Source: Seison nebaliae
Taxonomy: Eukaryota
Length of the DNA stretch: 40,098 nt
Direction of reading: 5' to 3'
NCBI GenBank assembly: GCA_023231475.1
Contig: JALJEE010002292.1
Span: 62,001-102,098 of the forward strand
Part shown: positions 9,001-37,349 of the stretch, piece after piece
How positions within the stretch are numbered: position 1 is the stretch's first letter
Layout: every line of letters starts with the position of its first letter
Made by a program: the position numbers and the translations under genes
Notes under the pieces: generated by a model
What the model was told of the DNA's origin: nothing
Seen by the model: the letters and a program-made list of their open reading frames with translations, nothing else
The model's database searches: none

Positions 9001-11747
9001 GACGAGAGATCATTTCAAATTCATCTGGTTCATTATATTCATCTCACAATGTCATCATTATATGTTACGAATGGAAGAGAAAAATGATAAATTGATTTGT
9101 TCAATTCTCACCAATTTCAAAGTATTCATCAATAATCTCATTCATCAACCATCACCTGATCGTTGTTCTAATGATTTATTTGATGATATAAAAGAAATTT
9201 CAAATTTGAAAAATTTGGAAGAAAAAAAGAATCGAATCGAAACTTCAATTGACATCGGAAAAATCACTAGAAAAAATTCACCAAAAGAAAGTTTTATTTT
9301 TCATCATTTTTCCTTTTCATTATTAAAATAGAACTGACGATGGCACATGAATTGTTGAAGAGTATTCTCATCAAACAATATTTTGGGAAAGATGAAAATG
9401 TGGAATATTTGAATGAATTCCAAATATTTCCGTTCACTCTCTTAAAATTGGGAAATTCGAATGATTTCCTGGAATTATACTCGTTTATTCGACAAGATAA
9501 TGAAAGAGATTTAATGTCATATTGTAAATATGACGCCTTCCTCCTCATCGAAGACGTAGACGATGATCAAATGAAGATTTTAATGGAGAGAATATTTGAA
9601 GAGTTAAAAAGAAAAAATGAGAATTTTCAAAAAGTCGTCATCGAATTTGATGGTCCTGACGGTTGTACGTCAACGAATGAACGAATAATTTACGAAAATC
9701 TTTACGAATTAATGACAACAAACGAACATCGAATCATTTTCTTCCGTCATACGGAATATGCGACTCATGACATTTTAGAAGAGATTCGTGCTATTCTTCG
9801 TGACAATATAAGTTTCCATCAAAATCTTTTTCTTTCTCTTATTTCTCCATATTTCAGATGGAAATGATATCATCATTCTAACACGACGAGAAGGTAAATT
9901 ATTGAATGGAATATTGGAACAGCAATGTCTCCCAATGAGAGCACATTCGTTAATTTCCACATATTTTGATGAAATTTCAAAAAAATTCAAAAAAAGTTTT
10001 TTTATTTTAATTTATTGGAAATTTTTAAATTTCTTTTTTACAGAAAAGAAGATCGTCAATATCAACGATATAAAATTATCGGATAATTTAAGAAGACGAA
10101 AATGGCAAATTATTATAATTCTCATATTCCAATCATTATTCTCCAATGAATTATACGAAAAAAATTTCCAATTTATTTTATTCTCGATGATGGAACAATT
10201 GGAAGAAATATCGGATGATGAAGATTTGTATAAAATGAAAGACATAATTTTAAATCAACTTCTTCATGGAAGTAACGACATGGAAATTTTACAATTCAAT
10301 CGATTAAATCAACATCTGAATGAGATTACTAATCGATTACACGATGATAAATTTGCAATTTCAGATGAAATTGAATTAAATATAAATGTAAAATCGATTG
10401 AAGAAATTTATGAATTATTCAACTCAATCCAATTCGAAAGATTCAGTAAATTATTCAAGAACTTTCATTATACTATGGTTGGATGGTTAATAAAAATGTT
10501 TTTATGAAATTTTTGAATGAAAATATTTTTGTTTTTTATAGTGAAATTCCAGAGAAAGAGAATAAGAAACTTTTGAAAAAAATCATTTCCAAATCATTAG
10601 AAATCGATCAATTAAATGAAGAGAATGAATTGAAAGAAAATAATTTTATTGATCAATTGGAATTATTATCTAGAAATTTACCGAGATATGATGATCTCAT
10701 TGATATTCATTCGTTATTGATTAAAGAGAATTTGAACACCAAAAATATTCTCTCGAAGAAAATAAATTGTCGAAATAATGAATGGGAGGAAGTAATTCTT
10801 CCAGTCAACTACGAAATTACAAATTATCGTGAAAAGATTTTCAACATATTGGATTCATTTCTACTCAATGTTAATTCATTCATTATAGAATTCTAAAAAT
10901 TTTCCCCTTTTCCAGGAATTTTTCAATCACATAAAATTGATTAGGGAAATCGAAAATGATCTCATCATTTTCAAATCCTTTTCCCCACAAATCAATAACT
11001 GGTTGGACGTGGAGAATCATCCGTCAATTCCCAAAGATCTTTTAATATCTATGCGAAATGTTTATGATGGTGGAATACCGAAAAAATGGAAATTACAAAT
11101 GGGAATGAACGAGAAGAATTTATCGATAAAAAAATTTCTAGAAAGTTTTTTTTTCGATTTTTTTTTTTAAAATTGAAAAATTTTGTTTTTTAGTTCTCAA
11201 TTTCACTTTACGACAATTATGTGAATGGACACAACGTGATAAGGGTGAATATTTCCTCCCAATTCAATGTTTCAAACGAATCGATATTTTATATTCAATT
11301 CTCTGTCCATTAGCGAGTGGGAATAACGACGGTTCTGAAAAGAATGTCCTGTTAATCGCCAACAAAAATGATATGAAGAATTTGTCGATGGATTATGATT
11401 TACATTTTGAAATTGGAACGATTTTCATCGATCGATGGGAAGAAGTGATGTATGGAAATGATGTGATGGATGGAATAAAAATGGAAAATAAATATTTGTT
11501 TATTGTGAATAAAAAGGAATTATGTGAAAAGATTGAATTGAAGAGACTGTACACATTCGTTGGAGTTGCACATAATTCATCATTATCGATCAAAACATAC
11601 GACACTCTTCATTCTCATCCTCAATTACAAATGAGTGTATTGATGATGAATGAGAATGAAATGAGAAGGAAAGAAGACGAAAGAATTGAGGAAAATAGTT
11701 TCGTTCATACACTTATCACGAATGCATTCATCAACTTATCTCAATGA
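2..11747 (+). CDS. Highly divergent dynein heavy chain-like protein, 5'-truncated by the window. Exons <2-9290, 9332-9811, 9858-9995, 10044-10485 (or 10497), 10542-10869, 10916-11144, 11194-11747; ~3,820 codons in the window
   Basis: Frame is open from position 2. Walker A motifs GNLNTGKST (2219-2245) and GMRKSGKS (3683-3706), Walker B-like LLYFIDDLH, a degenerate AAA4-like segment HFTLIANGHIDIDSSLKLAS, and coiled coils flanking an MTBD-like segment (LQELRSQLSRP...LSWNRGAKRLL...LYYWVKG). Six 41-56 nt GT-AG introns join the downstream ORFs in frame. Confidence 0.8.
474..683 (+). repeat. Coding tandem repeat, ~7 x 30 bp, encoding 10-aa units like NSEKENIEKE
   Basis: AATTCTG/AACTCTG recurs every 30 nt; translation NSEKENIEKE NSEKEDIRNE NSEKVNIEKK NSVKEKIENE... 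Confidence 0.9.
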
Positions 11748-11752
11748 TCATT

Positions 11753-13213
11753 TTACCATTTCACCATTTCTTTATATTCGTCTTTTAATGATATTCGTTT
11801 AACGGTTTCATATCCGAAAATTATAAACATCGAATAAACACACGAATGTGTCAATCGAGCTGTCAATCCTTTGAAAACCATTTGAACACCTTCCTGTTTC
11901 CATAAATTGACGAATGTCTTATAAAACTTTCTCGTCGCATCTCGTCCATTTGATTTATATTGTAACTGAATTCTCGTTCGACAAACATCGAACGGATTCG
12001 TTAAAACTGTCGCCATAAACGACGCTAACGGTCCTGCAAATAATTGAACGATGATATTTGGAACTTTTTCTGGTAGAATTGATGCCACTTGTTTCTGCCA
12101 GAAGAAATAGAAAGGCCACCAAACAGCCGAATTCGTTCCGAATAAAACAGTGGACAAAATAAATCCTCGATAGAAACCGCGAATTCCATCTTTTCGATAA
12201 ATATGTTCCGTCAATTGTTTCGCATCTAATAAACGATCGCCTGTTTTTCTATTAGGTCTAAATGTGGATTTTAAGATGAGTTCTTTTGGAATTCCCGCTA
12301 TCGAATTTTCAGTTGATGGAAATTTCAATAAATTATTCGATGCCATCAACTATTCAAATTTAATCGATTATCGATTGAAAGAAAATTTCAAACTTTTAAT
12401 TGTCCCAATAACATGAGTTGTTGAGAAACGATGTCTAACGGAACGACCATTGTCTGCGCTATAGCTGAAGCGGCTGCACCGCCCAACATTGCAGCCGTAT
12501 ATTTCTGAGAATCAAATTGAAATTCATTTGTATTTGTTGTTGATCGAGAATCGATCATATTCGATATCAGATAACGGAATCTTTCAAACGTCGTTATATA
12601 AATTATTCCGGGAAACAATTGCAGATTATATATTCCACATCCTCTATAAAGTGCACGAACTCCTCCTTCTTTAAGAACAAAAAAATACAATGTAATAAAT
12701 ATCAGAATTTCCGATAAAAACATGGAAAAAAATTTTAATTTCTCAAAATACATCGACGAAAATTTATTTTTCTTAATATTTAATATATTTAATATAAACA
12801 ATTTTCTTTGGCGAAAATCATAAAAAATTTTTTTTTTGGCAAAAATCATAAAATTTTTGACATACAACATAAAAAATTTTCTTTGTCCAAAAAAAGTTGG
12901 AAAATTTTCATGAAAAATTTCTTAAAAAGATGTCGAAAAAAAACGAACCGCGATGATAAATACTGCGAAGGGCATGCCATGTTCCGTTGTAATTGGTTAT
13001 TCCATGATTATTGGGAACTAAACGGTTCGTACGTCTTTTCGTACCAGTTTGATATTGCAATCGTGCGCGTACTAAAGTGACTGGATAGAGAATGGTCCGT
13101 ACACTCATAGAGGAAGCGGCAGCTGACGGATAATATTTCCATTTATCCATCATGTACCACTCTACGTCTCTGATGCTGGCCGCCTCCATCTCCTCCAAAT
13201 CGATACTACTCAT
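11753..13213 (-). CDS. SLC25A44: Mitochondrial carrier SLC25A44-like, 378 aa. Exons 13213-12949, 12668-12394, 12349-11753
   Basis: N-terminal VEWYMMDKWKYY matches the SLC25A44 EW..LDK.KFY motif. Three carrier repeats (YPVTLVRARLQ, VPLDIVSQQLM, NPFDVCRTRIQ) and GIRGFYRG. Introns of 280 and 44 nt restore the frame. Confidence 0.9.
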
Positions 13214-13703
13214 TTTCCTTCTTTATTCGATTTTAATTATTTATTCTAATTCTTTCTACTTCAAATTGACATTCGCATTTGATTCGATTATTAATTCGAA
13301 TTGAATTACCACTAAAAAAATTCAATTGATCAATTTATTATTGAGAGACAAATATTGTGGTGAGGAGGATAATAAGGAAATATTGTCTATTAATCATTTT
13401 CATTTGTCAGATGAAATTCTATAAATCCATCTTTTCCTTTCTCCTCGGTTATACTAAAGCTTAAAATTTGAAATAATTAAAAATTTTCTGGAAAGAAAAA
13501 ATTATTTTCTTATAACTCAAATCTCATTTAACAACACTATTTCAGTACGTATCATTTCAAAAATTAAATCAAGAAATATTCTCCTTGTTTCGCTGATTTC
13601 CTAAAGAGATTCTCACATATTCTCCAACTCTTACGTTACTATGGTAACGGGTAAGAATCATTTTTGAATTCAGAATGGAAAGAATATGACTGATAAATTT
13701 TAT

Positions 13704-16170
13704 TTAATGTTCTTCAACATCTTTCGTCGTCATATTAGACCAATAATCAACAAATTCACCTTTCTTCTTCACCTGTTCAAAACATTCGATTCGATCACCA
13801 GATTGGAAAATAAAAGTGGAATTTTGCAGATGTTCTTTCTCATCAGTTTTTTCCATGTCAAATGGTATCAAACTAATTCCACATTCACTTCCTTTCTCTA
13901 CAAGGGAGATGTCATTCTTGAAATGTTTCATCGAATGGATTTTCCCTAAACAAAAGGAATTTAAAAATATAATTTTCAATGGAACCTTCAAAAATAATTT
14001 CTTTTTCATTTATTTCGTAATTCATTCGGAGAATACGAAATTTTTTCTTTCTCACCAATTGTCCTTTCAAACAACGTGTTCCTCCCACACAAATCTGTTT
14101 CTTATCTTCTTTCACATAAAACAAATTGGAGACTTCTCCTTCACCTGAAAAATGTTTGTTGAAATTTTAAATTTTAAAAATTATTAACCGATCACATTTA
14201 CGACTTCAACATCAGGAATTAGAGATATCATTTCCTCTTTCATATCATCCAACAATTTATAAATAATATCAAATTTTTTAATATTTCTTTTTTTCACCAA
14301 TTTCGTATCTTTCGATGTGGAGACATTGAACGCGTAAACGATTCCATTAAATGCGTTCGCTAATTCCACATCTTTCACCGAAACGTCACCTAATCCGAAA
14401 TGAACTACGTCTAAATGACAATGTGTCGATTCGTGCAATTGAAAGATATCCATCAACGCTTCCATCGTTCCATCAACATCACCTGAAGAATGAAATAATA
14501 AATAAATTTTAAAAAAAAATATGAGAATTATTTGAAACATTTTAAAACGATTGATAATTTGGGTAATTGTTTCTCTTTTAATTCATCATCATAAATCGTT
14601 TTCTTCGGTCGAGCTCCTTTCGTCTTTTGTCGTAGTCGTTCCTGATAACGGAATTCTCTCCATCCAATTTTTCTTCTCATTTCCAATTTCTTTTGATATT
14701 CTTTCGCATGAAGATCGATATGTTCTGTATTAGAAGTTCCATGTTCCAATTGATGACGATAATTCATGACTTCATGCATTTTCTTCTCTGATTCCACTTC
14801 TAGAAATAAATCACCAGGTTCTGGTAATTCTTTCCATCCGATCACTTGTGCTATCTCTCCCACACTCAATTTCGATGTTAACACTTTTCCTGTCTCATCA
14901 AAAATATTTCTTACTTTACCAAATCCTCCATTACCTGCTACTATTGCTGCTCCTCGTTTCAAATTTCCCCTTTGAACAAGAATTGTAGCGAGTTTACCTC
15001 GATGTTGATCGATCGATGATTCTATGATGATTCCTTCACATTTACCAGATGGATCTCCACGTAATTCATGAAGTTCAGCTTCCGTTATTATCGTTGAAAT
15101 CAAATCAGTAATACCACTACCAGTAAGTGCTGATATAGAAACGTTTTGAATATCCCCACCAAAATCTTCTAGAATTAAACCATTTTCCAATAATTGTTTT
15201 TTAGTTTTTTTCTGAAAATTTTTTGAGAAAAATTCAAAAAATATTTTGAAAAAAAAAACACAAATAACAATATTGGCTTGAGGTAGATCACATTTGTTAA
15301 TAGCGACGACTGTCGGTGTATTTGTTCGTTTAATTAATTCAATACATTCCAAAGTTTGCGGTTTTACACCATCAATTGCCGATACCACCAAAATGACGAT
15401 ATCTGTCACATTCACTCCACGTTGTCTCATTGATGAGAAAGCGGCATGACCTGGTGTATCCAAACATGTGATGATCTCATGTTTCTTATCTAGAAAATTG
15501 TTAAATTAATCATTGAATATACGTAAAATAATTAAATTAATTTCAAATTTTTTACATTTTCAAACCTGAATCCAGATCGATGGAAAATGCTCCGATATGT
15601 TGTGTAATTCCACCGAATTCCTCATCGACTACATGGGAATGACGTAATGAGTCGAGTAAAGTCGTTTTCCCATGATCCACATGACCAACGATACAAATGA
15701 CAGGACGTCGTCTCATCCAATGAGATGTGTCGATCGGTATTGATCTGGGATAAACATTTTTATCGATTAATTCAGTTTTTTTTATTTGTGGAGATTTTGT
15801 TATTTCATATTTCCGTCCACTTTTCTTTACAATATCGATCAACAAATCGAAATTTTCGATTTCTTAATAAAATGAAATTTCAAAAAAAAAATAGATTAAA
15901 AAAAAAATTATTTAAATTTCACTTTCATTTATCCCCACTGATTGTCGACGTATCCCACTATATTCCAAACATTCATAGACATGTGCTGAAATAAAATTAA
16001 TGAAGAAAATTCAAATTAGTATTCGAACAAACATTCTTCTTTAAAACTTCACTCATTTCTTTCACTGTCATTCCATGAAATATTTTCACTGCTTCCTCTT
16101 TCCTCTTTAACACTTCCACAATTTTATGTCGATGTCGAAATAATTGACGATTATTAATAATTCTTAACAT
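13704..16170 (-). CDS. MTIF2: Mitochondrial translation initiation factor IF-2, 696 aa. Exons 16170-16029, 15985-15923, 15862-15566, 15489-15269, 15211-14539, 14482-14189, 14144-13986, 13945-13704
   Basis: [67 protein letters not shown]. Basic N-terminus resembles a mitochondrial presequence. Seven GT-AG introns give a continuous frame. Confidence 0.95.
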
Positions 16171-16326
16171 TTTTTTTTTCAATTTACATGAAACATAAAA
16201 ATCTGGAATTGAAAAAAAAGGAAAAAAATACGATATTGAAGAAGGAAAAAAAAAAAGAATTTCTTTTTGAAAATCTTAATATTTATTTTTATGAGAAAAT
16301 TATCCGATTCAATATGAGAAATTTGC

Positions 16327-16784
16327 TCATTTGAAAGTGTCTTCATGTGCTTGATGTAATTTCGTCACAGAATTCTCTTCGGAACGCAGGAAATCTTCCG
16401 GTAGAATCATGTCGTCCTCTCCTCTTAACATTCGTGCATGTGGATTATTTTTAGTAATCCAATTAAATTTATTCGCTATCTTTTTCTCCATCTCTAATCG
16501 TAACGGTGCATGTAATCCTGAAAAAGAGAAAAAATTTGAAATTTATAAAAACATTCCAATTAACCAGAAGTATTTCGGAGAATTGTATAATTCATTTTTT
16601 CATCACGTTTCCTCCAATTTTCTTCATTCGCTTCCAATGGATGTGTTTGTGACAATTGATTCAATGTACTTGGTCGAATGGTAGTGAGATCGTTCGATGC
16701 CATCGATGGAATCATACATTCATCCATCGATCGATCATCATTTGATGGAATAACATTCTCCGATTTTCTTAATTGATAAGTCAT
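16327..16784 (-). CDS. POMP: Proteasome maturation protein POMP/UMP1, 136 aa. Exons 16784-16565, 16517-16327
   Basis: Spliced product HPLEANEENW...MNYTILRNTSGLHAPLRLEMEKKI...MLRGEDDMILPEDFL matches the UMP1 family signature. Intron is 47 nt. Confidence 0.92.
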
Positions 16785-16860
16785 CGTTTAAAAAAAAAAT
16801 TAATGGATTCTGGAAGAAGAAAATGGAAGATTATGATTAGAATGATGGAAATTAGAAAAA

Positions 16861-17325
16861 TTATGGTTTTCTCCATTTACATGAGGGACAATATACAAGT
16901 AATTTTTTTGACGTATAATCTAAACATTTCTGATGATACCATCCATCACAACCATCACAACTTACTAATTTCCCTAATTCTGATGCTGGTAATGGTGGTG
17001 GTGGAGTGTTAGGAAATAATGGATCGATTTGAGATTCATCCTCTCCCACACCACACACCTTACAATACCAAGTACATCGAATTCCTGGTACACTGCATTG
17101 GAAATAAGCGACACATTGAGTCAAGGCAATTCCTTGATCTGTTTCTAATGGAACTCCCATGGAACTTCGTTGTTCATCCGTCAAATCTTTCTCATTCAAT
17201 ATCGACTTGTATAATTGAGGAACGGATTTCAAATCATCTTCTAAAAATTAATTCCTATAAATATTCCCATTTCATTAGAATAATGAACTTTTATTAATTT
17301 TTTCCTTTTTCTTCGTTTTCACCAT
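16861..17325 (-). CDS. Small PHD-finger protein, ~138 aa. Exons 17325-17289, 17240-16861
   Basis: C4HC3 pattern WYCKVC...VSCDGCDGWYHQKCL...YCPSC at the C-terminus. A 48-nt intron links an upstream exon MVKTKKKEKINK in frame. The start codon is less certain. Confidence 0.75.
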
Positions 17326-17608
17326 CACCAACAGTCACACAATCAGGAAATAAACATCTGAATAAAAAAAAAGAATTTTTCAATAAATAATTTCCATTAT
17401 GAAAAGAAATTATTGTCATTTTATCAGAAAAAAAAAATTAAATTGTCGAGGAAAAAGCTGGAAAATATTCTCCAAAATTATTTTGGAGAAAAAATTTAAC
17501 TGGAAAAAAATTTGTTTTTTCTAAATTTTCTAAAATAGAATTTGAAAAGAATTGGAGAAAGGAATTTTTTAGAAGATTTTTCCAAAAGTAAATTGGAAAA
17601 TATTTTTA

Positions 17609-18145
17609 TCACAAATCAAATTTTTTGTGTATCCAAATTTCGTTTCGTCTCGAAAAGAATTTAAATGGAGGATCATACATGGCCGTCATATAATGTTGAT
17701 TGGTTGAAATGAATGATTTACCTGATGAATTCAATTGATTCTCTAAACCGACGGAAGCGGATTTCATGTCGTCGTTAGATGGGAAACCTGAAATGTTTTT
17801 CACATAAATTTCTCTTTCAGGAAATTTTTTCAGATATAAATCTTTTGATTTGGGTTTTGGCGGATCAGTTTGTCGCTCACCACAAATATAGAAACACATT
17901 TCGTGGTGTAAACCATCATCGGAATAAAAATGACAAACTGGTTTCGTCATTCTCATTTTCAATTCGTCCGAATTATCACCCTGACGATAATGTGCCAGTT
18001 TCTTAAACATCGATTTCCGTTCGTCTTCTTTGGTGCAAATCCAATTGGATTCTTTATATTTGCGCAATTGAAAATCATCATTTTCATCAACGATCTCGTA
18101 AGACGGAGTCTTTAGTAAATTTTCATCAATTTCTTCATTACTCAT
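17609..18145 (-). CDS. SOUL/heme-binding protein family member, 178 aa, intronless
   Basis: TPSYEIV...FQLRKY...WICT, MFKKLAHY..G.N...MRMTKPV, PPKP...L, AMYDPPFKFFSRRNEIW are SOUL (HEBP1/2) family motifs. Confidence 0.92.
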   Translation of the reverse strand: MSNEEIDENLLKTPSYEIVDENDDFQLRKYKESNWICTKEDERKSMFKKLAHYRQGDNSDELKMRMTKPVCHFYSDDGLHHEMCFYICGERQTDPPKPKSKDLYLKKFPEREIYVKNISGFPSNDDMKSASVGLENQLNSSGKSFISTNQHYMTAMYDPPFKFFSRRNEIWIHKKFDL

Positions 18146-18352
18146 TTTTGTAGAAATGACAAGAAATTTTAAGACCTAACATTTGAATATTTTTTGAGGT
18201 TGAAAAATGTGAAAGTTTTTTTTGAAAAAATTTACGGAGGACATGAAGGAATAAGCCAAGCTTATTTCCAATTCCGATTAATTTCAATTCGTCTCATTTT
18301 CTTTGTTAGTTTTACTTTTTTGTTCTTAGTTTTCCGTTAGTTGTTGAGAGTA

Positions 18353-18596
18353 ATGCCTGATAGAGAAAAACAAATTAAGAAGTCTGTTGGGAAAAAGAAG
18401 AAGGAAGCTGAAAAGAGTGCGAAAAAAAATTGGAGAGATTTCAAGAAAAAGGTACGACAGACACGTCACGATATCGTTTATGGTATAGCTAATTCTTGTA
18501 TGGTTAATAGAACTGCATTAATTCCAATTGTTTCGTTTACTTTTTTAGAAAACTACTGATAACTGTTGTAATAGTTTCAAGAAGAATGCAGGATAA
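18353..18596 (+). CDS. Small Lys-rich protein A of unknown family, 65 aa. Exons 18353-18502, 18549-18596
   Basis: MPDREKQIKKSVGKKKKEAEKSAKKNWRDFKKKVRQTRHDIVYGIANSCM|KTTDNCCNSFKKNAG*. The 46-nt GTT...TAG phase-0 intron is typical of this window, and exon 2 resembles exons of the neighbouring gene B. Confidence 0.65.
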
Positions 18597-18886
18597 TAGA
18601 ATACATCTGTATTAAAATTTTCATATTCTTAAAATTTTCCGTATCCTATTAGTGCTGGGAATAGTAGCTGGAAACTCTAATAAATTTACTTTAAATCTTT
18701 TAATGAGTTGAACAGATAAACATTTGTAGAATTTTAGTTCAAATATTTTTAATTTGTTGGAGCCAAAAATGCTTTAAAAAATTTAAGAAAATTAACTAAC
18801 TAAAAATAAATGGCATGAAATTATTGAAGGAATATTTTGTAATATAATTTATGTTCATTTTATTTGTAACTGTAAAGGAATTGAAC

Positions 18887-19452
18887 TTACAATAAAAATC
18901 GTTTAGTTAACGTCTTCTTAACAAATTTACAAGTTAAATCATTTTCTTTCTAATATGTTTGAAAAAGGAAATAGAAAAAGGATGAAAATAAGTTGAAATT
19001 AACTCGATATGTTTTTATTGCTCCATCGGCTACTTTCTTCGTAAATTTACAACAAACATCTGTTTCTTTCTATTGAGTTGTGTTTTATAATAATAATTTT
19101 ATTAAAATCCACTAACTTTCCAAGTATCGACGAAATCGGTGACGAGACCCTTCCTTTCCTTGTTCAAATATTTCCTGCCTTTCTTAACTCTTTTCTTCGC
19201 TTTCTTATATTGTTTTTTTAGACTTTTCCTCATTTTCTTACCTTGCTTCTTGATCTCCTTCTTTCTCTTCTTATTCTCCTTTTCCATCTTCTTCCTCCGT
19301 TTCTCATGTTCCTTACTATCATAACCGCAACGGCTCTTTTTATTTTTTTTACTCTTCTTACTCTTTTTACTTTTCTTCTTTCGTTTCTTATCTTTCTTCT
19401 TCTTCCTTCTTTTCTTCTTTCTGTCCTTCTTCTTCTTACTTCTCTTGGACAT
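18887..19452 (-). CDS. Extremely Lys/Arg-rich protein B, ~154 aa, with sperm nuclear basic protein-like composition. Exons 19452-19117, 19069-19004, 18949-18887
   Basis: MSKRSKKKKDRKKKRRKKKK...TDFVDTWK|KETDVCCKFTKKVADGAIKTYR|KENDLTCKFVKKTLTKRFLL*. Two phase-0 introns (47 and 54 nt). The 3' end is uncertain because GTAAGT overlaps the stop at 18890. Confidence 0.7.
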
Positions 19453-19784
19453 CTTTTAAAAATTAACTTGACGTCGTTCGACCCAGACACTGGTCTGAAC
19501 AAAATGCGCTTTCAAAAGAGAAAAAGACAAATAAAAATGAAAAACAAAATATACGAAAGAACATTATTGATTCCATCGAATATTTAAAATAATCGCTATT
19601 TGAAAATTAATGGAATTGGACTAAGCTTGCTACTGAATGGAAATCGATAAAGAAATTGAATGAGCTTGAAAAATGAGTAAAACTCTTAATGAATTTCTCA
19701 TTTGACCTATTAACATTTCCACGTCGAACTTAACATTATCATTGAAGTTAATTGAAGAGCGCCTGAGAAATTCTAAAAATAAAC

Positions 19785-22062
19785 ATGTTTCTTTCATTCT
19801 CCATTCTTTCCTTACTCGTACATGTGATTCAATCGAAAAATCTGTTGGTCACGTCCATTATACAACATCCACAAATGTTCCCAATTCATTTGGGACAATT
19901 GGAAACTTATATAAAATGTCCAACCAATACAAATTGTTACATAATGTTAAAATTTACTTATTTTTTTCAATTTCTAACATTACCCTTTAAAAGTTTTATT
20001 CATGTTGATGAAATACATGAGCCTAATAAGTTAGTTGAACATTTGACCAACTCAACTCCCTTCAAATGTCTCACGAAAGTTTTTCTTATTTCCTTATTTT
20101 TCAAATAAATTCTCTAAATTTCCCAAAGAATTGTTTCGTTCATTATGAAACGATGATGTTGAACGAAAAACATTTAAATGTGAACGAATTACTCAATCTT
20201 CAACCAACTTTGGAAATTGATTATATGATGGTAAATCCTATTAAATTTTGTGTGTCTTCCTAATGTTTGCTTTCTCTTAACGGAAACCCATCGAATATTT
20301 CTTTCGACTGAATATTTTTAATCACTTCTTCATTATTATTCAGGTGATGAATATGGAGACTTTATTCTATGATAGAGATATCATCTCTAATCTAATCAAT
20401 AAAGAAAAGTTAATTTTCTTTGACTTTTTTTAAATTCAAATTTTTTTCTTTCAAGAGTTTTTGTCGCTCCCTTATTGAGTTGTTCGAAGAGAATTGATTC
20501 TTTCAATTTTCTCATGGATGATGAAGTTTATTATTATTTAAAAATAATTCAAAATTTATTTTTTTTAAATTTTTTTATGAAATGAAAGGAAAAAATGCAA
20601 AATTTTTCTCAATGCCAAAAACAAGAAAAGTGCACAGGATGTGCATCGGCGTCCAGTATCAGCAATACATTCATGATAAATCTAAATTTATTCAATAATC
20701 AAATAAGAAATTGGAACGGACGAACTTCTCAGCAATTACCAACCGATTTTATCAATCATCTCGTTCATTGGCAAACGAAAGAATTTGGCATCAGTTCAAA
20801 ATGGATCAAAATTTTTGATGAAAAATATTTTTTTTCTAAATGTTTTTCTTTCTCTTATTCCAATTTTAATTGTCTGTTCAGTATATATTTGTAATCGGAA
20901 AGAATATGGTCTTCAATTTTCTTATGATTTACTCCGATCAGATTACGAATTATTATCCGTTTCCGTTGACGAATTAGTTGTCCATCATCAATTGGAATAT
21001 ATGGGTTTCTTTTCACATTTTAAATTGTCAATTTCATAATTCATAAAAGTTAATCGTTATGACAAGAAATTATGGGAAGCTGCATCGAGATCTCGATTTC
21101 CGGAAGAAGATTTTAAAAGAATTTTTGGGATATTAAATAATGTGATGGAATTGTATAATTTCAATAAATTTTTTGATAAAGTTACAATTTGAATTTTTTT
21201 TTTGAAAATTATTTTCTTTCTGAAGATTTTCGTTATAAACTTAAAGAGACGAAATGAGAAGAGAGAACGAATGAAAGAATCATTATCAATTCTCAATATC
21301 GATGTGGAATGGATCGATGCGATTGATGGAAAGTAGTAGATTTATTATAATTTCTTCTTGTTCATTAAATTCCAAAGAAATATGACGGATGATGATATGA
21401 AAAATATAAAATTTTTCGATTCATATATCGATCCGTATAACGAAAGGAAGATGAATAAAGCGGAAGTCGGTTGTTTTTTATCTCATCATCTCATTTGGGA
21501 TCGAATGGTCAACGAGAATATGAAGAACGTTCTCATTTTCGAAGATGATGTTCGTTTTGCTGAATATTTCTCGAAACATCTCAATTCATTAATTCAACTC
21601 TTATCCACTTCGAACAAGCACTGGAATTTGATGTTATTTTTTTTAAAATCAAATTTTGAAAAATTTTCTTGTAGATATTTAGGAAGAAAAATTATGAGAC
21701 CAGACGAAGAAAATTTTGATGAAGATTTTCCTTTGTATCTCATTCATCCTGCGTTCTCACATTGGACACTTGGCTACATGCTCAATTTGGAAGGAGCAAT
21801 AAAGTTGACGAAACAAAAACCGTTGGAATGGTTGATTCCTGTCGATGAATATCTTCCATTAATGATGAATAAACCATACGAGTTATTGGAAAATTTAAAT
21901 GTTTTTTTAAATAATTTTTCTAGTTATACTTGGTCGGAAGAGATTCAGTCAAAAGATGTGATCGGATTGTCCATCAATCCTTTAGTCATCGAACCGACAC
22001 ATTATTATGGTGAACCTGGATATATTTCTGATACGGAAAACTTCTACTTTCCAACATTATAA
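19785..22062 (+). CDS. COLGALT1: Glycosyltransferase family 25, procollagen galactosyltransferase (COLGALT)-like, 549 aa, 12 exons. Introns 19946-19993, 20079-20128, 20231-20343, 20409-20455, 20526-20588, 20794-20881, 21005-21049, 21181-21225, 21333-21377, 21633-21674, 21882-21923
   Basis: N-terminal signal peptide; FVAPLL, ICNRKEYG, IFVINLKRRNEKRERM, DAIDG, EVGCFLSHH, LIFEDDVRF, YLGRK, WTLGY, IPVDEYLP, PTHYYGEPGYISDTE. Confidence 0.9.
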
Positions 22063-22116
22063 AATTTAAACTAATTTACCTCAATATTTTCCTACCAGAT
22101 AACTTTTCTTTTGACG

Positions 22117-23729
22117 ATGGATGTTTTTAAAAATTTCCTCATTTCTTTTCAAAACCCAATCCATCCAAAATATGGTTGGTTGGTGAATAATTTTGTTGGG
22201 AATTTAAAAGATTATTCATGGAAGAATTGTGGAAGAAGCATCATAAAAGAAATTGAATATTACGTGAATGATTGTTGGATACATTTGAATATCGGTTCGA
22301 TACTTCCATTTTTCCGTCGCTTCTACTTCTCATTATTCTCTCAAGGTCATTGGAGTGAAATTGATGGGAAGTGGCGATTCACTTATGTTTTTTTCGTCGT
22401 TCTCAAAATTTTCCTTAACAAATTTCTCTTCTTTGAAAATGATATGACTGAGGTTATTCTAAAATGTGAATTTAATTTAAAATTATCAAATTCTCATTAG
22501 TCGTTAGAATTGATCGACAAGTGTTTATTATTCACTGGAAATTTGATGAAGAAAGAATTAAATGAGTTGTTTGAAGAGTTGAAAAGAGACGAAGTTTTTA
22601 ATTTGATTTTTGTCATGATTATTATTTTCGTGAAAGTATCCATCAGAAATAATCGATATCCATCTGAACGAATTGATAGAAGATGATAGAGACGTTATAA
22701 AAATTAAATTTCCTATTGAAGAAAGAAACGAGTTGAGTTTATTCGAATTTCGTGAGGAATATCTGATGAAGGATCGACCGGTGATAATAAAAAATTTCGT
22801 CCACAATTGGCCAGCCACCACAAAATGGTCATCGTTAGGAATGATTATTTAATGAAGATCTCTTCAGTATCTATTATTCAGGACGAAATATTTGTTGGAG
22901 AAATGTTCGAATCGAACTGTGCCCGTTGAAGTTGACGGACGTTATTCTGATGCAGAATGGAGTCAACAATTGATGCAATTTGAGGATTTCCTTCATAAAC
23001 TTCTAAGTTATGTTAGTGGATTTTAATTGAATGGATTAATTCAAAGAATTATTCATGTTTAAGAGTAGCGATAAAACTAAATCGATCGAATTGACAACAA
23101 AACGAGAATATTTAGCACAACATCAATTATTCGAACAAGTTTCTTTTTTGAATTTTTTGAAATTAATTCATGAAATTATCTGAAAGATATCTGATTTAAG
23201 GAACGATATTTATATTCCTGATTATTGTTTACTTCAAAAAAATGATATCATGAATGACGATGAAGCGACGGATGATGTGGAAGAGTGTGTCACCATTAAT
23301 AGTTGGTTTGGTCCAAGAGGTACCGTATCGTCATTACATCGCGATCCAAAATCCAATCTCTTTTGTCAAGTTAATTCAAAATAATTTTAAAAAATAATAA
23401 TCTACAAAAATTCAATGGAATCATTTTAGGTAATTGGTTATAAATATATTCGCTTATATAATAATGAGGATACTCCACGACTATATTGTCACTCTGATTC
23501 ATTATTGAAGAATACGAGTCAAGTTTTTCTTCTGATTTATCTTCTAATACTTATTTATAATAAGGTCGATGTTGAGAATATAAACAAGGAAAAATTTCCG
23601 TTAGCCGTCGATTGTCCATATACCGAATGTGTTTTACCACCCGGATCCGTTTTGTTTATTCCTGCTTCGATGTGGCATTATGTCCGATCATTATCCATCA
23701 GTTTCTCCGTGAATTTCTGGTGGGAATAA
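22117..23729 (+). CDS. KDM8: JmjC hydroxylase KDM8/JMJD5, 406 aa, 9 exons. Introns 22295-22345, 22453-22500, 22594-22636, 22834-22881, 23012-23063, 23139-23186, 23370-23429, 23523-23564
   Basis: [43 protein letters not shown]...[35 protein letters not shown] (HxD), [17 protein letters not shown]. Confidence 0.95.
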
Positions 23730-26348: not shown

Positions 26349-28031
26349 ATGTTCCAATTTAGAAAGAAGTTTCTGATAAGTCTCCGGAATTATTCGGAAA
26401 AGAAATGCATAAAAATTCCTTCGAAAATCGAAAGGAAATCTACCGATATCTTGAGCGGTTTAGCTTCCACCATCAAACCGGTGAATGATGCTCCTCATTA
26501 TATGTATGTGGATGATCCGTGGTTAATTCCTCGTAGTCTAATGGAGAAGAAAACTTACGCACTTTCAAAAATATCGGGAGAGAGGACTGCGGAATTTATT
26601 GGTGAGAATCACGAACTCTTCTTTCGGAGATCGACAGCAGATCCGAATTCGTTCGAATTCCAAACGAAATTTCCAAAATTTTCCGAAGAGAAATTAAACG
26701 GATATTCTTCCGACATTGAACTATTGTGGGATTTGATTAGTCACGGGAGATTATTGAAAACGAGTGAAATATATCTGAAAATGAAAGAGAAAAATGAAAA
26801 TTTCCTCAATTCCCAACCCGAATTATTAGAGACATTAATTTATTCACTTATACTTCATGGTAATGATGATTTCGATGGTGTCATTTACAAATCAAATGAG
26901 AATTTACTCGTGAAATGTTATGAACAAGAATTCTGGTTTAAACGGTCGATTGGTGCTCGATTGGCAAATTTGCACGATTTGAGAAATATTAATATTCTCA
27001 ATCAATTATTGGAGAGATCGTTCCACACACAAATCTTACCCAACACTTGGAACGACGATGGACCGGTAGATAAATTATTGAAATATTTTAATGAAGAAAA
27101 TAATGAAAAGAAAAATTTGGAATTAACTTCAGCGAGAATACGATTATTATCGAAGAATAATGAATCAGAGAAAATTGAAGAGATTTGGAAGAAGTTCCTC
27201 AAACATCATTCTCAAATCCAATCGATTGACATTGATACGATGAATGTTTTAATTCGAATGATTCCTCTCAATTATAATTATTATAACGAGAAAGAGGAAG
27301 AAATTAAACAATTTTTAAAATTATCTAAAACAAAATGTCAACTAAATTATACTTCAATCAAATCGTTATTGAATTCTTCACTTTATTCACTTCGTCGATC
27401 AGTGTCTCATCCGAAAAAAATCGCTTTCGCCTTACAACTTTTCGACGAATTTCAACGACATCAAATTCAACCTGATCTCGAGACATTTACTCATCTTTTA
27501 CTCATCTTTTATCCTCATTCAACAACGAACGACAGTATTCTCTTGGAAATTTTGGAGAAGATAGAGAAGAATTTCGAACAATTCCCAATTCGAACAGAAT
27601 ACGATTCTCAATTCTTCGCTGTCGCTATGAATCGATGTAATGTCTGTTTGAATGACGTTTTATTATGTGAGAGAATTCATGAATTATTTTTAAAATATCT
27701 TCAATCGTCAAGTGGATTAGAAGGATCGTTACCATTAATCGATGAAATCCAAACGATAATTTATTATTCGAATTATTTAAATTGTCAATTGGAGGAGAAA
27801 AGCTTTGAAGAATTCATGGAAATTTGGTCGGAATTAGTTCCTAATACTTTCTCTCCAAGTCCAATCTTTTTCGAGAAAGTGCTCAAACAAATGTTGAATG
27901 AAAAGAAGGAAGAATTTCGAGCGAAATTGAAATCTGACGCGAAATTGTTGGGATTTTTATCGGAGAGAAATAAAGACACTTTCATTGCCACTATTTTCGA
28001 CGATACGAAAACATTTGTTAATGAATCATGA
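26349..28031 (+). CDS. PTCD3: Pentatricopeptide repeat protein PTCD3 (mitoribosomal mS39), 560 aa, intronless
   Basis: IKIPSKIERKSTDILSGLASTI..APHYMYVDDPWLIP, ALSKISGERTA, PDLETFTHLLLIFY, DSQFFAVAM, LVPNTFSPSP. Presequence-like MFQFRKKFLISLRNYS. Confidence 0.92.
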   Translation: MFQFRKKFLISLRNYSEKKCIKIPSKIERKSTDILSGLASTIKPVNDAPHYMYVDDPWLIPRSLMEKKTYALSKISGERTAEFIGENHELFFRRSTADPNSFEFQTKFPKFSEEKLNGYSSDIELLWDLISHGRLLKTSEIYLKMKEKNENFLNSQPELLETLIYSLILHGNDDFDGVIYKSNENLLVKCYEQEFWFKRSIGARLANLHDLRNINILNQLLERSFHTQILPNTWNDDGPVDKLLKYFNEENNEKKNLELTSARIRLLSKNNESEKIEEIWKKFLKHHSQIQSIDIDTMNVLIRMIPLNYNYYNEKEEEIKQFLKLSKTKCQLNYTSIKSLLNSSLYSLRRSVSHPKKIAFALQLFDEFQRHQIQPDLETFTHLLLIFYPHSTTNDSILLEILEKIEKNFEQFPIRTEYDSQFFAVAMNRCNVCLNDVLLCERIHELFLKYLQSSSGLEGSLPLIDEIQTIIYYSNYLNCQLEEKSFEEFMEIWSELVPNTFSPSPIFFEKVLKQMLNEKKEEFRAKLKSDAKLLGFLSERNKDTFIATIFDDTKTFVNES

Positions 28032-29370
28032 ATTTTATGATAAAATAAAATTTTTTCTAATGTGATAAATTTATGTTGGAGTGTCGGTTTGACGACGAGT
28101 ACTCGATCATCAGAGGAGTGATGTAATCGAATTCTTTCAACTCTCCAAATTGCCAGTCGAAGAGAAAAGTGAAGTTGATGATGAAGGTGTTTAATGTGGA
28201 GAAGAGATTGGACGAGAAGATTTCCTTTTATGAAGTGACCAATTTTCTCACTTGGAGATAATTCTTCAGTAACTTTTGCGCGAGCATCTTCGAACCGACA
28301 AAGACCTTTTTTTCAACTTATTCCCGACCATCACTAGTATATGATCGAGAATGGTATGATCTGTGATTAGGAGGATATTGAAAACTCTTCAATCACTTTC
28401 CGACGTATCTCGAACGGTTTTTTTTTCAAAAATTTTCTTATACTCCAAAAGAAAAATTGGAGGAGATTTCATAGTAGAAATAGGAAGATAAAACGAATTT
28501 GAATGATTTAGAAGGGAAAAATTCTTTTGGAAAAAATATGTGGACTTCATAAAAATGTTTAATACAATTTTAATGATTTCTCTTTGTTTGCATGTTGTCG
28601 TTTCGTTATCGTCATCATTTGCCTTCCGAATGGGAAGGTATGGAATAGAATCTCTTCTAGAAGGAATTGGGCTGATATCAATTATTTGTTAGTGGATGGA
28701 ATGAGAAGGAATAATAGAAGACAGCTCACGAGATGTTGAAGGTAGAAATAACGAGGAATTCTTTTGTTATCCGTCGTCTCACGCATTCTGCTTCCTATTG
28801 TGATAGTCGACGATAGTTTATTTTGATAAGAGCACAGATGTAAATCGTTCGTTCATTCGTCAAATCGACCATTCATATTCGAAGGAATAATATTGTTCAC
28901 ACGAAGATACTTTTCTTTATCTTGTAGAGATGTAGAATATCAGATAGAGAAACATCATCCATGATTGTATTAATCATCTCGTTCCTCTTCCAATTGTCCG
29001 ATAAACAACGAAATGTTATTGTTGTCGTTCAAGAATAATATCTGTACAATAACTTATTTCGTTTGTTATTATTATCTTCCTCATTTGAAAGGTAAATGAT
29101 GAACTGGACGAAGAGTGCACAGAAAATGCACGGTTCTCCTTATTTTACTTGAACAGCGCAATCATCTCGTATGTTGATAGTGGCTTTGATGAAGTTCGTT
29201 TTGGTTAGTGAAATGAGATCTGTAGAATGGAAATAAGTTCACGGTTTATCTCGGTAACACCAGATGGGATGACGGTGATCCGTTTCTTTTCATTAGGGAG
29301 ATGATATTCCGATCGTCTCACTTCTCCTTGCCCGAATTTAAAATAAATATTTTAGATTTCCTTTCTACTC

Positions 29371-29380
29371 TCATCATTTG

Positions 29381-31714: not shown

Positions 31715-34470
31715 ATGATTATGAATAAAGAGGAAGACGACTCGAAAGAATTGTCGAATTCTAATCAAATTTGTTTCTGTTGCAATTCACCAATTCTCGA
31801 CAAATGGGTCATGAACGTTGGCGACGAAACGTGGCACGAACAATGTCTCCGCTGTACGAAATGTAACGAATTATGTTCGTGGAAATGTTTCAATAAGAAC
31901 GGTCTCATCTTTTGTCCCAACGATTATTTCGAGTTTGAAAATTTTGTCCATTCAAAATTTCCTTTTCAATTTTCTACTTCAGAATCTTTCAAAACAATTC
32001 CAGAAATTTGAAGGAGTACCGGTCGGGAGAGGAAGATCGATTCCTTAATTTGTCATGTACGATTTGTGAAAAGATCTTCTTCCCATCCTCTACCGTCATT
32101 CAAACGAATAATCGACTATTCCATCATGAATGCTTCCGCTGTTCGCAGTGTGGCATGCAATTAAGGAAAGGCGATGAATTCGGTGTCATGTCAACAGATC
32201 GATCAGTCAAAATTCTTTGTAGCCAACATTATTTCCTTCAAACAGATGATGCTTCTCTTTCGCCATTGGAAACGATGAACAGAAATTCATCTTCATTCAC
32301 TGATTGGTCGTCGGAGAATTTATCGGACGTGCCTCATACCAAATTGGAAGACGGAGAGAAAGAGAATAAGTATAATAATGTAGAGAAACGGAAAATTTGT
32401 TCATCACACGAATGTTCTTCCCCGAAAAGTTTGTATAATTTTCCTTTCATTCTCCTATAAATATCTCCTCAATTCTTTCTCCTCTAAATATCTCCTCGAT
32501 TCTTTCTCTTCTAAACATCTCCTCAATTCTTTCTCATTATCTTCTCTAAAATTCATCAATCCAAATTTCTATTTATAATCTATATTGATCTCTCCGATTC
32601 ATTGGAATATTATTTGCGAAGAGCAACCTGTCCTCTTCTTAACGATAAACAAACATTCTTCCATTTCGTCGTGCCTTGACGACTTTTCTTTCTTTCCCAT
32701 ATGTTGACAATCGTTGAAAGTTTTTCGTGTTAATTCATTAATTAATTTGATGAGACTCCTGTCCAATGATGAGATAAGAACGTTAATAATCAGTTGAACA
32801 CTAAGAATTTGTTGATCCTCCTCCTTCCTTATCAGACGATTGACAGGCGTTATTTTCTCAATTAAATTTCTTATCATCACTTTCTCTCACGTCAATCAAT
32901 AAATATTGATGATTTTTAATGATTTAAAATAGATGCAAAAATTGATGAGAAGAATGAGAATAAGAAAGAACCATTAACTGAGATGGAAGAGAACAATAAT
33001 CTGTCAATGAAGAATTTCGTCAACGGCAATTTCTCTAATGATCCATTTCCATCTTCCGCACCATTTCTCCCACAAATACTCAGTAACGAACAAGAGAATT
33101 CGGGTACTTTCCAACCAGATATCAATAATGACGGATCCGTTGATCCTAATCATTTGCCATTTTTAATGGCATCGATAACATCGAATAATGGTAATAATAA
33201 TCCTCAAGGTCTCCCATCGTTTTTGGCATCTTTAGGTGCACCAAATCAGGGTTTGCCTCCGGCGTCCTTATTCTCTCATATGAATGCACAACATCCAGCT
33301 AGTCATCTCCATCAATCACTTTTACACAGTGTGACAACTGGAAATACTTTATTGGGCAATCATCATACACATATGAGCAACGCGAGACAAAAGCGAATGA
33401 GAACATCATTTAAACATCATCAATTGCGAATTATGAAAACTTATTTCCAATTGAATCATAATCCGGATGCTAAAGATCTCAAACAATTATCAACCAAAAC
33501 AGGTTTATCTAAACGAGTTCTACAAGTCTGGTTTCAAAATGCACGTGCAAAATATCGTCGAGGTGTAATGGCGCAAGAGGATAATGGGAAAGATGTGAAT
33601 AAAACATCAGAAAACGGTTGTTCGAATAATGAGGAAGATATTGAGAAGAATGATGAGGATAACTGTGAGGAACAGGAAATTTATGAAGAGGAGGACGAAG
33701 ATGAATCGAGTAGAAATCAGGAAGACGATAGAAAAACGGGAAATAAACGAAGAAAGATTAAAAATAAAAAATGTTTAAAGAAATCTAAAACGGATACGGA
33801 TAATCATCAAACTAATCATTTTGATGAATCAGATGACGATCTTATCAATGAGAGTGAAAGTAAACAATTGAACGAACTGAATTATTTGAATGAGATGATA
33901 AACAACGAGTCTCATTGCCCAACTAATCCATCAACCGATTCAAATATATATAATAATTTTTCTGCTACAACTCTATCTAATTCCGTCATGATTCCATCAT
34001 CTTCGTCTTCTATCACAACATTAACAACATCAACAATTACTCCATCAATACCAATTTCAATTATGAATAATAATTTCCAAAATTTCCCCACAATTACATC
34101 GGATGGAATTTCTTCTCATGAATTTATACCGAATCATTTAGTTCTCTCATCGTCATCCATCTCTGCTATTTCAACTTTGACACCATCCATCACTCCTCCC
34201 GTATTTGATGGAAATAATTATCCTATTCGCTCAAACAGTCAACAATTATTACCAGAAACAACAACCGACGTTTTCACACAAATGAGAAATGCATCGGGGA
34301 ATTATCTTGAACAATTTCATTTCAATTTACCGATTGATGAGAATAAATTCCATCCAAATTCCTTCTCACAATCCAATGTCGACCAATTCAAACCAGTTAG
34401 TAAAACGACTATTGATGATAACAATTCATCAACAATCTTTTCTCGGACTATGCTCCAACAAATCATGTAG
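31715..34470 (+). CDS. LHX2/9: LIM-homeobox transcription factor of the Lhx2/9 (apterous) class, ~733 aa. Exons 31715-31932, 31983-32428, 32933-34470
   Basis: Two LIM domains (CFCC...WHEQCLRCTKC...C..DY; CTIC...FHHECFRCSQC...LRKGDEFG...C..HY). Homeodomain QKRMRTSFKHHQLRIMKTYFQLNHNPDAKDLKQLSTKTGLSKRVLQVWFQNARAKYRR is diagnostic of Lhx2/9. Confidence 0.95.
32459..32540 (+). repeat. Intronic tandem repeat, 3 x 27 bp
   Basis: aaatatctcctcaattctttctcctct / aaatatctcctcgattctttctcttct / aaacatctcctcaattctttctcatta. Confidence 0.85.
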
Positions 34471-35637
34471 ACTGATGTGATCTTTTCCCAAGTCATGTCA
34501 AGTTGATTCTTCATCATTATTTATGAATTTATTGTTATTTAATTTAATTATTCAATATTGTGACTATATCGAAATAAAAATTCTTCTTCATTTCTCTTAT
34601 CTTCTGTCTTGTTTTTCATTTATGTCGGTATTTACATGTCGGTTTTTCAAAATCAAAAAATTTTTAGTTAGCTTTCAATATTAACGCAACATATTTTTTA
34701 CGATTCTTCATTACAAAATTCAGTTATCGAATGTTTTATTTAAATTGTTTAAATCTTTTGAAAGTTAGAAATTAACGTAAATATTTATTTTATTCTTCAA
34801 ATTATACTTTATTGAGATACCTTTTTTGCGATATACGACAGTCATTTCTTTTAAATTTAAATTAAATCGAAATATTTAATTAAATTCTAACACTTTTGGA
34901 TAATGTCTCCAGAATTCTTCTCTTCAACATGATCGGTTTTTATAGAGGTTGTGAACTTGGTCGACCCTTTGAACAGTTTGACGATACTTTAAGAAAAATA
35001 AGAAATTAATCCAACTTCTATAATTGTGTGCCGATGCCATTCCTTTGCCTGTTTCAAAATTTGTGGCAATGAAAAAATAGAATAATAAAATAGAAAACTT
35101 CATCTATTTTCTCAGTGGTTACTTCGGAACTCAAACCTTATTGCAAAAATTGAAGAATAACTAGCTAGGGCACGATATCTAGTGGATTCGACTGACTATG
35201 ACTTCGAGTATATTTTATTTTGTCGTTTATTCGACAACTAAAAATTAATGTCGAATTAAATTTATGTTTTCTTAATTGTGTGCCAAGTTCTTATTAGCTA
35301 TTGTTTATATCGACACTTCATTACTCAAAATTCCGTTATTTTTTTGAATTGTTCAAAAAAAAATTATTCAACTGAATTTTCCTTCGTTTTGAAATGTAGA
35401 TCGATCTACATAAAAAGTTTTAATAAATTTTCGTGAAGACAAACAGAGTTTAAAACATATTTTCAATTCCTTCAGAGGAAGTTCAGAGGACTGATTTTTC
35501 ACGTATTGATTCTCGTTCATCCAAATTTATTCAATTGAAAACATTTTTGCAGTTACAAATATCTTTTTCTTACCGGATAATTTGTGCACAAAATACTATG
35601 ACGATTTCAATAAAATTTTAAAAAACTGATGACTGGT

Positions 35638-37349
35638 TTAATTTAATTTTCTTTTATTTTCTATTAAATGGTATTCTTTAAATAAAAAAGATTCTTGCTC
35701 ATATTTACATTTTTGATAATTGGAAAATAATTCAATGGGATAAGCACAACTCACACTCATATAACCTCTTGTCATTCGTTGTTGTACTTGAATAAATTCA
35801 GACCATTCGTCAAGTGTTTTTAAATCGAATTGTTTCTTATATTCATTCTTGAAAGTATTTGTTCCATTATAATTTTTGAAGAGTAACGATCTCATGGGTT
35901 CATAATCTTTAATGAAATTATCTGACAATTTTTCAACTTTCATCCAATATCTAAAATTATGAGAATGTCAATTGAAAGGAGCAAGTTTAAGATAAACTTA
36001 TTTGATTGAAAGACAAAAATAAAATCACCAGCACAAAAATGACCGATATTTTTCCGTCCATAATAAATACCATAAAGAAGTGACATAAAATAATCTTTCC
36101 ACGAGTAATAAGTAGTGGTCGGTGGACAAAGAGTTTTCGGGTGATATGATGAACATAATAAGAGACATGCTGATTTATACCTGTCAATTTTGTTTTGTAA
36201 AAAGTTTTTCTGAGGAAAATAAATAAATGAAAAAATTTAAGAAAATTTATTGAATTTAATTGTTGAATTAATTAATTAACTGATATAATTGAAGAATCGC
36301 CGTTAGATTTTGTTGGAAAGTCATAACCAAATTGAACTTTATTAATTTTGGACCATTCTCTCAGAATTTGGGGTTGGAGAAATTGTCGGACATTCGTCCT
36401 CAGACCCAAATCAAATGGGTTATCATTCTCATAATGACAAATGATTGATTCGTGAAATAATTGATAATCAGATTGAGCGGTCAATTTTTTCCATTTTTCA
36501 ACATTTTTAAATAAATTCCATAAGTTGAATTTAACAATTTTGTCATTGATCGAATTGACCACCAATGACTCAGTCAATGTCAAATTAATTGTGATAGTAA
36601 AGAACTAAAATTGTTAAAGAAATTATGGAAAAGTTAATTAGATCCAAACTTGCCATAACAATAAATTTCCGGTGAATAAAATTACTCCGATACATTCGAA
36701 GATAGTTAATAAATTATTTAATTTGAATATTACCCGAATTGATTCTGGAACTTCGTCTTCTAACTTTAAAACTATTCGCTCGACAATAAACAAATATATT
36801 AAACTGCATAGACCCAATACATCAGAACGTAATACAGTCCTACTGACGTGTTGATTGTTGCGAATAAAATGAAGAGGAAATATTCTTTGAAATTCAGGAT
36901 AGCAACACAATTGTTAATTGCAGGACAATGATGATCGAATCGCGGACGACATCTACATTAATGAAAAAATGAAAATTTTCAAATAAAAATTTTTTGAACA
37001 ATTTACATTTGGTGCAATGATATGCTCTTGGTGGTATGAATCCGTTACAATGGTTACACCATTTCAACTTCAATTTATTCTCTTCGTTGTACTGAAAAAA
37101 TTAATGAAATTGCTGAAATATCAATAGTAATGTAACTGATTTCCATCCTTTACGTATTTGACCAGGAGCAGAAAAGACTGAACGATAATAAAAGATGTAA
37201 ACGAGTGCTAAACATATCAACGAGTAAAGATGTGCGCACCAATAATGGATGAATGAATATTCAATCAACAATTGAGTACACATGGCCGAAATGCCGATAT
37301 GAGTAATTTCATACGAAACGATATAAATTGCAAGATCATCTAATTTCAT
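35638..37349 (-). CDS. ZDHHC6: DHHC palmitoyltransferase, ZDHHC6-like, 471 aa. Exons 37349-37137, 37091-37000, 36952-36805, 36763-36650, 36604-36281, 36209-35998, 35950-35638
   Basis: APGQIRKGWK, WCNHCNGFIPPRAYHCTKCKLCRPRFDHHCPAINNCV, NLTLTES, NPFDLGLRTNVRQF, and a C-terminal SH3-like region (GDFIFV..YW...RGYMSVSC) as in ZDHHC6. Family call is secure; orthology is less so. Confidence 0.85.

Follow-up and report, generated by a model that had tools for sequence, protein, structure and literature searches.

We have analysed the 5' splice sites (donors) of the introns in a 40,098-nucleotide (nt) stretch of the genome of Seison nebaliae (contig JALJEE010002292.1; hereafter the window, with coordinates counted from its first letter). 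The animal, a marine seisonid rotifer (Gnathifera, Pararotatoria), has Nebalia crustaceans as its hosts (PMC8351084). Its DNA in the window is compact and AT-rich (GC about 0.25–0.36 per kb) as well as intron-rich, with 44 coding introns in 14 gene models and 26 kb of coding DNA. In total we have catalogued 54 introns, with a median length of 48 nt (range 40–504) and GT-AG termini in every case. As many as 51 start with GTT, the other three starting with GTA (20231 and 21333) or GTG (15922), and a purine at +3, as in the GURAGU-like consensus of U2-type introns, is found in 3/54 only. The change in the 5' splice-site code of this intron-rich animal is confirmed and has RNA support, for the single 40 kb window on which all the donor statistics given here rest.

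The introns were placed by transcript alignments (25), by exact mapping of deposited proteins (19) or by our own models (10). On the plus strand the window begins inside a very long gene (2–11747), in which 3109 codons of open frame without an intron, counted from the window start, are followed by six short introns at the 3' end, all GTT (9291–9331, 9812–9857, 9996–10043, 10486–10541, 10870–10915, and 11145–11193; own models in a stop-free frame). By eye only this gene appears dynein-heavy-chain-like, and its large open reading frame (ORF) had no Pfam match at threshold. Further along the same strand are found a Glycosyltransferase 25 / procollagen galactosyltransferase gene with 11 introns, nine of them GTT (19946..21923; donors 19946, 20079, 20231, 20409, 20526, 20842, 21005, 21181, 21333, 21633, and 21882), and a JmjC/cupin gene, which we take to be JMJD5/KDM8-like, with eight introns, all GTT (22295..23564; donors 22295, 22453, 22594, 22834, 23012, 23139, 23370, and 23523), both resting on deposited proteins and on the homology test described below. 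An AIP-like gene (25449–25498 and 25877–25930) and a LIM-homeobox gene (31933–31982 and 32429–32932, the latter of 504 nt) carry two GTT introns each, by own models in a stop-free frame and with Pfam matches. The 504 nt intron contains a tandem repeat (32446–32535, 27 nt), and two others lie at 458–673 and 38474–38617 (30 nt both).

All the minus-strand introns are supported by transcripts. A mitochondrial carrier gene (12350..12948; Pfam Mito_carr), presumably SLC25A44-like, has two GTT introns with donors at 12948 (280 nt intron) and 12393, and its transcript overlaps, in antisense, about 400 nt of the final exon of the long plus-strand gene (11351–11747). MTIF2, also supported by a deposited protein and the homology test, has seven introns (13946..16028; donors 16028, 15922, 15565, 15268, 14538, 14188, and 13985), all GTT except the GTG at 15922. 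Single GTT introns are present in UMP1/POMP (16518..16564; Pfam UMP1) and upstream of a PHD-finger exon (17241..17288). Two more (18950..19116; donors 19116 and 19003, both GTT) lie at or behind the 3' end of a lysine-rich ORF (19102–19452), which is transcribed and has no Pfam match, a protamine-like sperm protein being a guess; the intron at 19116 removes the last codons and the stop of this ORF, so its true C-terminus differs from that of the unspliced frame. A short transcript with no protein assigned has three introns (34848..35098; donors 35098, 35015, and 34891), a DHHC palmitoyltransferase gene (Pfam DHHC) together with the gene behind it has six (35951..37136; donors 37136, 36999, 36804, 36649, 36280, and 35997), and three more lie upstream of the DHHC reading frame (37340..37964; donors 37964, 37718, and 37384), all of them GTT. 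One assembled transcript (34758–38113) links the DHHC gene to the downstream ORF 35638–36206 via the intron 36280–36210, a joining that may be read-through or an assembly fusion, and isoforms at this locus keep upstream introns unspliced.

The transcript evidence comes from supplementary file 2 of PMC8351084, which holds GMAP alignments of Trinity transcripts from a genome-guided assembly. Eight spliced transcripts mapped to the window (two further isoforms add no gaps, and unspliced rows were excluded), giving at least 25 different gaps, for each of which a single GT-AG placement exists; 24 of them are GTT and one is GTG. For 16 of the 25 (15 GTT and the GTG) only a single gap position is possible, and therefore the splice model of the aligner cannot have picked the donor. 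Removal of introns from RNA is thus supported for 25 gaps, every one on the minus strand, and no spliced rows for plus-strand genes of the window were found among the alignment rows listed. Contigs from sequencing runs mapped to 9001–28500 had no intron-sized joints, those of one run spanning the stretch as DNA and those of another giving no alignment, and have no bearing on expression.

Further placements come from proteins. Searches with the MTIF2 and glycosyltransferase exons retrieved two hypothetical proteins of Seison nebaliae (SNEBB_004185 and SNEBB_004190, respectively), which map letter for letter onto the exons in the window, and one transcript row has exactly the exon and intron lengths predicted for MTIF2 from the protein. 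The deposited proteins give seven introns for MTIF2 (six GTT, one GTG, the same as the transcript), 11 for the glycosyltransferase (nine GTT, two GTA), and eight for the JmjC gene (all GTT). These 26 junctions were also subjected to a homology test, in which profile hidden Markov models built from 50, 27, and 50 homologues of other species, without Seison's own protein, scored all frame-keeping GT/GC-AG pairs within 30 nt. The annotated junction ranked first in 25/26 (no alternative existed for 8/26), the exception being 21005, ranked 4 of 4 with a deficit of at most 3.6 bits. All 14 gene models, own-model introns included, translate without internal stops. We have rejected wrong junction calls as the source of the GTT pattern.

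A preliminary description of this DNA, made from the letters alone, had reported GTT in 46 of 49 introns, and the range that it covered (9291–37136) now gives 48/51, with the identical three exceptions and, on the minus strand, with transcript support. Mapping of RNA-seq junctions was a check that it had proposed, and the published transcript alignments return GTT in 24/25 junctions and GTG in one. Its two choices of a GTT site over a neighbouring GTA are likewise borne out by transcripts, namely 15565 rather than 15555 in MTIF2 and 36999 rather than 37006 in the DHHC gene, where the DHHC profile continues across the junction (positions 4–26, then 28–75). It had also noted the lack of GTAAGT and GTGAGT donors (0/54 here) and the scarcity of G at +5 (about 12 introns then, 14/51 in the same range now).

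The excess of T is restricted to +3. Intron interiors consist of 50% T, 31% A, and 6.6% G, and the 51/54 T at +3 (A 2, G 1) is far above any of the backgrounds considered, be it T after any GT in the window (0.41, P = 6e-17), T in intron interiors (0.50, P = 1e-12), or T after GT inside introns (0.48, P = 1e-13); in the transcript-only set (24/25) the values across the same backgrounds go from 6e-9 to 7e-7. The remaining donor positions are loose. At +4 the introns are divided between A (24, P = 0.02) and T (22), at +5 they have A 18, G 15, and T 14, the G being enriched over the 6.6% intron background (P = 1e-6), and at +6 T (31/54) is close to background (P = 0.16) with only two G; positions +4 and +6 to +12 are all close to background in T. 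On the exon side A is frequent at -2 (34/54) and at -1 (30/54, P = 0.002; G 12, T 11). Expressed as information outside GT, +3 holds 0.73 bits, +5 holds 0.37, and the rest 0.21 or less. The commonest hexamer is GTTAAT (9/54), and the GTTTGN hexamers amount to 6/54 (GTTTGA 4, GTTTGG 1, GTTTGT 1).

Other signals were also inspected. None of the 54 hexamers is an ATATCC/GTATCC-type donor (consensus according to PMC3033335), and U12-type introns were rejected. Branch-point motifs of the YTRAY type are not above shuffles, and TCAY reaches 22 vs 15.5 (P = 0.03, for one motif among the six examined). Coding DNA contains fewer GTTAA (22 vs 45) and GTTAG (9 vs 14, not significant), and GTA-type words are also depleted (GTATG 9 vs 22, GTAAG 5 vs 10); unused GTRAG sites in transcript-covered exons (11 vs 17.5 expected) do not discriminate. 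The acceptors are TAG in 22 introns, AAG in 17, CAG in 15, and GAG in none, a relaxed -3 compared to the bdelloid-like introns described below (11, 1, and 3, respectively) that may represent another change, affecting the 3' splice site.

As a comparison we have used bdelloid-like relatives. Starting from 15 aligned glycosyltransferases of bdelloids and bdelloid-like animals we obtained eight metagenome loci, which match the first sequence of the alignment at 73–100%; this sequence in turn shares about 70% identity with named Adineta and Rotaria proteins and 31–38% with those of other animals. The bdelloid-like glycosyltransferase 25 gene (L006–L013) is intronless where full length, compared to 11 introns in Seison, and for this reason the flanking genes were used as control. 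In four of the eight loci (L006, 7560–9785; L009; L011; L012) 15 introns were modelled by eye, on the basis of open frames and of Pfam matches for 5/6 exon ORFs scanned rather than RNA (L007 and L008 repeat L006; L010 and L013 lie outside the count). The control thus consists of bdelloid-like loci only. These introns, with similar lengths, interiors of 44% T, and equally loose positions +4 to +6, start with GTA in 14 cases and with GTT in one. The difference at +3 is highly significant (Fisher P = 6e-11; P = 2e-8 with transcript-supported introns only and the orthologous pair counted once). Donors of the two groups are therefore alike in shape, with one strict base at +3 (T in Seison, A in the bdelloid-like loci) and loose +4 to +6, which suggests, in this small sample, that the loose donor is common to both lineages and that the switch at +3 arose on the Seison side. 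The +3U excess, the RNA-supported junctions, and the bdelloid-like contrast uphold that part of the view of the preliminary description in which this lineage has altered the way its 5' splice sites are recognised.

Could a relaxed +3 together with mutation bias, or the mass gain of GTT introns from an introner element, explain the pattern? The genome is AT-rich, and one pair of introns in unrelated genes, 19116 (minus) and 23012 (plus), has the same first 16 nt (column-shuffle P = 0.0025). However, neutrality would give about 50% T at +3 and not 94%, and this, together with the GTA of the bdelloid-like loci of similar composition, indicates that +3U is selected and goes beyond AT-richness, as had been proposed earlier. 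Against an introner, the intron-intron matches are short and were read as A/T-run matches (low-complexity filter off), 34/54 junctions have no direct repeat, and none of the repeats is larger than 3 nt. The JmjC intron 23523 also appears to be in an old position, with insertions at these residues in 7/149 homologues, of which five resemble read-through introns, while insertions also scatter over the nearby loop; this is suggestive only, and hints at an old origin, with later conversion of the donor, for at least part of the GTT introns. Both AT drift and introner-like elements were rejected, and we consider this family of explanations extremely improbable.

The +3 base is first read by the 5' end of the U1 small nuclear RNA (snRNA), AUACUUACCUG (PMC9311317), and, after U1, near the U6 ACAGA box (PMC11732430). 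We give about an even chance to a compensatory U-to-A change in the 5' end of U1 as the cause of +3U, a prediction derived from the donors. The U1 base facing +3 would have changed from U to A, so that the recognition sequence is predicted to be ACUAAC or ACAAAC instead of ACUUAC, and the major (U2-type) spliceosome would still read the donor in its normal register, as the survival of +5G and of a weak +4A suggests. With such a U1, +3U would be paired and +3A mismatched, and selection would convert old introns from GTA to GTT. Given the weak rest of the donor, recognition probably leans on intron definition across the T-rich introns of about 48 nt and on the A-rich exon ends.

Some of the data go in this direction. 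With only 2/54 A at +3 compared to 31% in intron interiors, A is avoided there and not merely unneeded, so something prefers U, and a one-for-one swap at +3 relative to the bdelloid-like donors would be expected if just one base of the pairing partner had been altered. The mean number of Watson-Crick pairs (out of 9) rises from 4.35 with canonical U1 to 5.26 with the variant carrying A instead of U at its position 6, which makes 4.27 pairs on 86 unused GTT sites; the rise is a direct consequence of +3U and adds no evidence of its own. Several points weigh against a changed U1. The +5G (about 29%) is only slightly above the 23% of nearby unused GTT sites, the split at +4 allows no choice between ACUAAC and ACAAAC (5.26 and 5.22 pairs), and -1G, with which canonical U1 pairs, is not enriched (12/54, P = 0.2). 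Elsewhere, yeasts, Giardia, and Trichomonas are reported to have changed the donor +4 without a change in U1, and 70 Saccharomycotina U1 candidates to keep ACUUAC (10.1101/2022.06.08.495308), and a review holds that U6 and U5, and not U1, commit the donor (PMC11732430). An Rfam scan of the window gave no match to any family, snRNAs included. A U1 pattern had no matches in viral contigs and five in prokaryote assemblies, which have no bearing on Seison; these five are bacterial metagenome-assembled genomes with canonical U1 snRNA genes, read as eukaryotic contamination.

The frequent A at -1, and GTTAAT as the commonest hexamer, would fit a canonical U1 slid by one base (+1), with +3U pairing to U1 A7 and -1A to U10. 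This register is known for human atypical donors, a rare class that fits U1 better when slid one base (Roca and Krainer 2009, as tabulated in PMC4856993) and that shares with Seison the A at -1. The human sites need +6G, though, and the slid register predicts this base (seen in 2/54) and not the +5G (15/54) that is found; it makes 3.94 pairs against 3.43 for decoys, a margin below that of the normal register, and -1A is also common in the bdelloid-like GTA donors (6/15). As the main mode it was rejected, and we regard it as very unlikely.

The little information that Seison donors carry beyond GT and +3 could also mean that U1 is canonical but weak or lost, and that the choice of +3U falls to the U6 ACAGA box, through either a G-U wobble or a changed base opposite +3. 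In human numbering the U6 base opposite +3 is G44. A GUUUGU donor can pair with U6 ACAGA over +2 to +6 (Roy and Bowser, 10.1101/2022.06.08.495308), and in Cyanidioschyzon, which lacks U1, the U6 box is altered and its pairing extended (PMC10158995). Such systems have a strong consensus from +4 to +6, whereas in Seison +5G is 28% and +6T is at background, and Entamoeba is reported to retain a typical U6 box (10.1101/2022.06.08.495308). We hold selection of +3U by U6 to be rather unlikely. The stronger proposition that an intron-rich animal rewrote its 5' splice-site code genome-wide, through a change in the U6 ACAGAGA box beside the catalytic core or by abandoning U1-based recognition, seems to us quite doubtful; if true, it would be the first such spliceosome in Metazoa, with many thousands of inherited donors converted.

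The T-rich interiors (50%) of these short introns bring in yet another explanation, namely canonical snRNAs together with a diverged protein (U1C, LUC7, SNRNP27K, or a TIA-1/Nam8-like factor) that prefers a U immediately behind the GU. Beside weak donors, TIA-1 binds U-rich tracts and thereby recruits U1 (PMC9311317), the Entamoeba U1C is highly diverged (10.1101/2022.06.08.495308), and the Seison assemblies lack about 36% of the metazoan BUSCO genes (PMC8351084). However, the excess is confined to +3, unlike what is expected of a U-tract binder, and the bdelloid-like introns, with 44% T, keep GTA. Overall, a protein as the cause appears unlikely.

U at +3 is not unprecedented in eukaryotes. 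Five Entamoeba species pair GUUUGU donors with a U1 ACAAAC (Roy and Bowser, 10.1101/2022.06.08.495308), and they resemble Seison in the near-universal +3U of GT-AG introns and in the departure from GUAAGU in a host-associated lineage. They differ in being intron-poor, with a strict hexamer (88–90% GUUUGU) and candidate branch points at preferred positions, whereas Seison is an intron-rich animal in which only +3 is strict, GTTTGN is found in 6/54, no standard branch-point motif is enriched, and the U1 change is a prediction only. In Mastigamoeba balamuthi, an amoeba, a U1 candidate ACGUAC is complementary to GUACGU (10.1101/2022.06.08.495308); as in Seison, the donor is atypical and the genome relatively intron-rich (2.5 introns per gene), but the change is at +4 and not at +3. 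The GUAUGU donors of Saccharomycotina, Giardia, and Trichomonas, with a +4 shift linked to METTL16/SNRNP27K (PMC11732430, PMC11347140, PMC10581693), also are a lineage-wide change of one donor position, although affecting +4, in intron-poor genomes and with no reported change in U1, while in Seison +4 is mixed A/U and it is +3 that has changed.

The literature searched gave no report of +3U donors for Seison or for any other animal; a syndermatan annotation paper from 2023 (Hydrobiologia) did not surface and may bear on novelty. By term search, the main text of PMC8351084 has no 'snRNA' and one unrelated 'splice', and its supplement 1 neither, and the main texts of PMC7310846, PMC12690905, and PMC12256650 are without splice-site or snRNA terms. 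PMC10125929 mentions Seison for lamins only, and the main text of PMC10639083 does not name it.

According to one model, the splice machinery co-evolves with its signals only once few introns remain (summarised in 10.1101/2022.06.08.495308). A near-complete swap from A to U at +3 in an intron-rich animal, with bdelloid-like relatives keeping GTA, would be a counter-example. The donors of Seison are relevant, too, to the question of the snRNA by which +3 is fixed, and in this group donors may be mis-called by gene finders that were trained on other animals.

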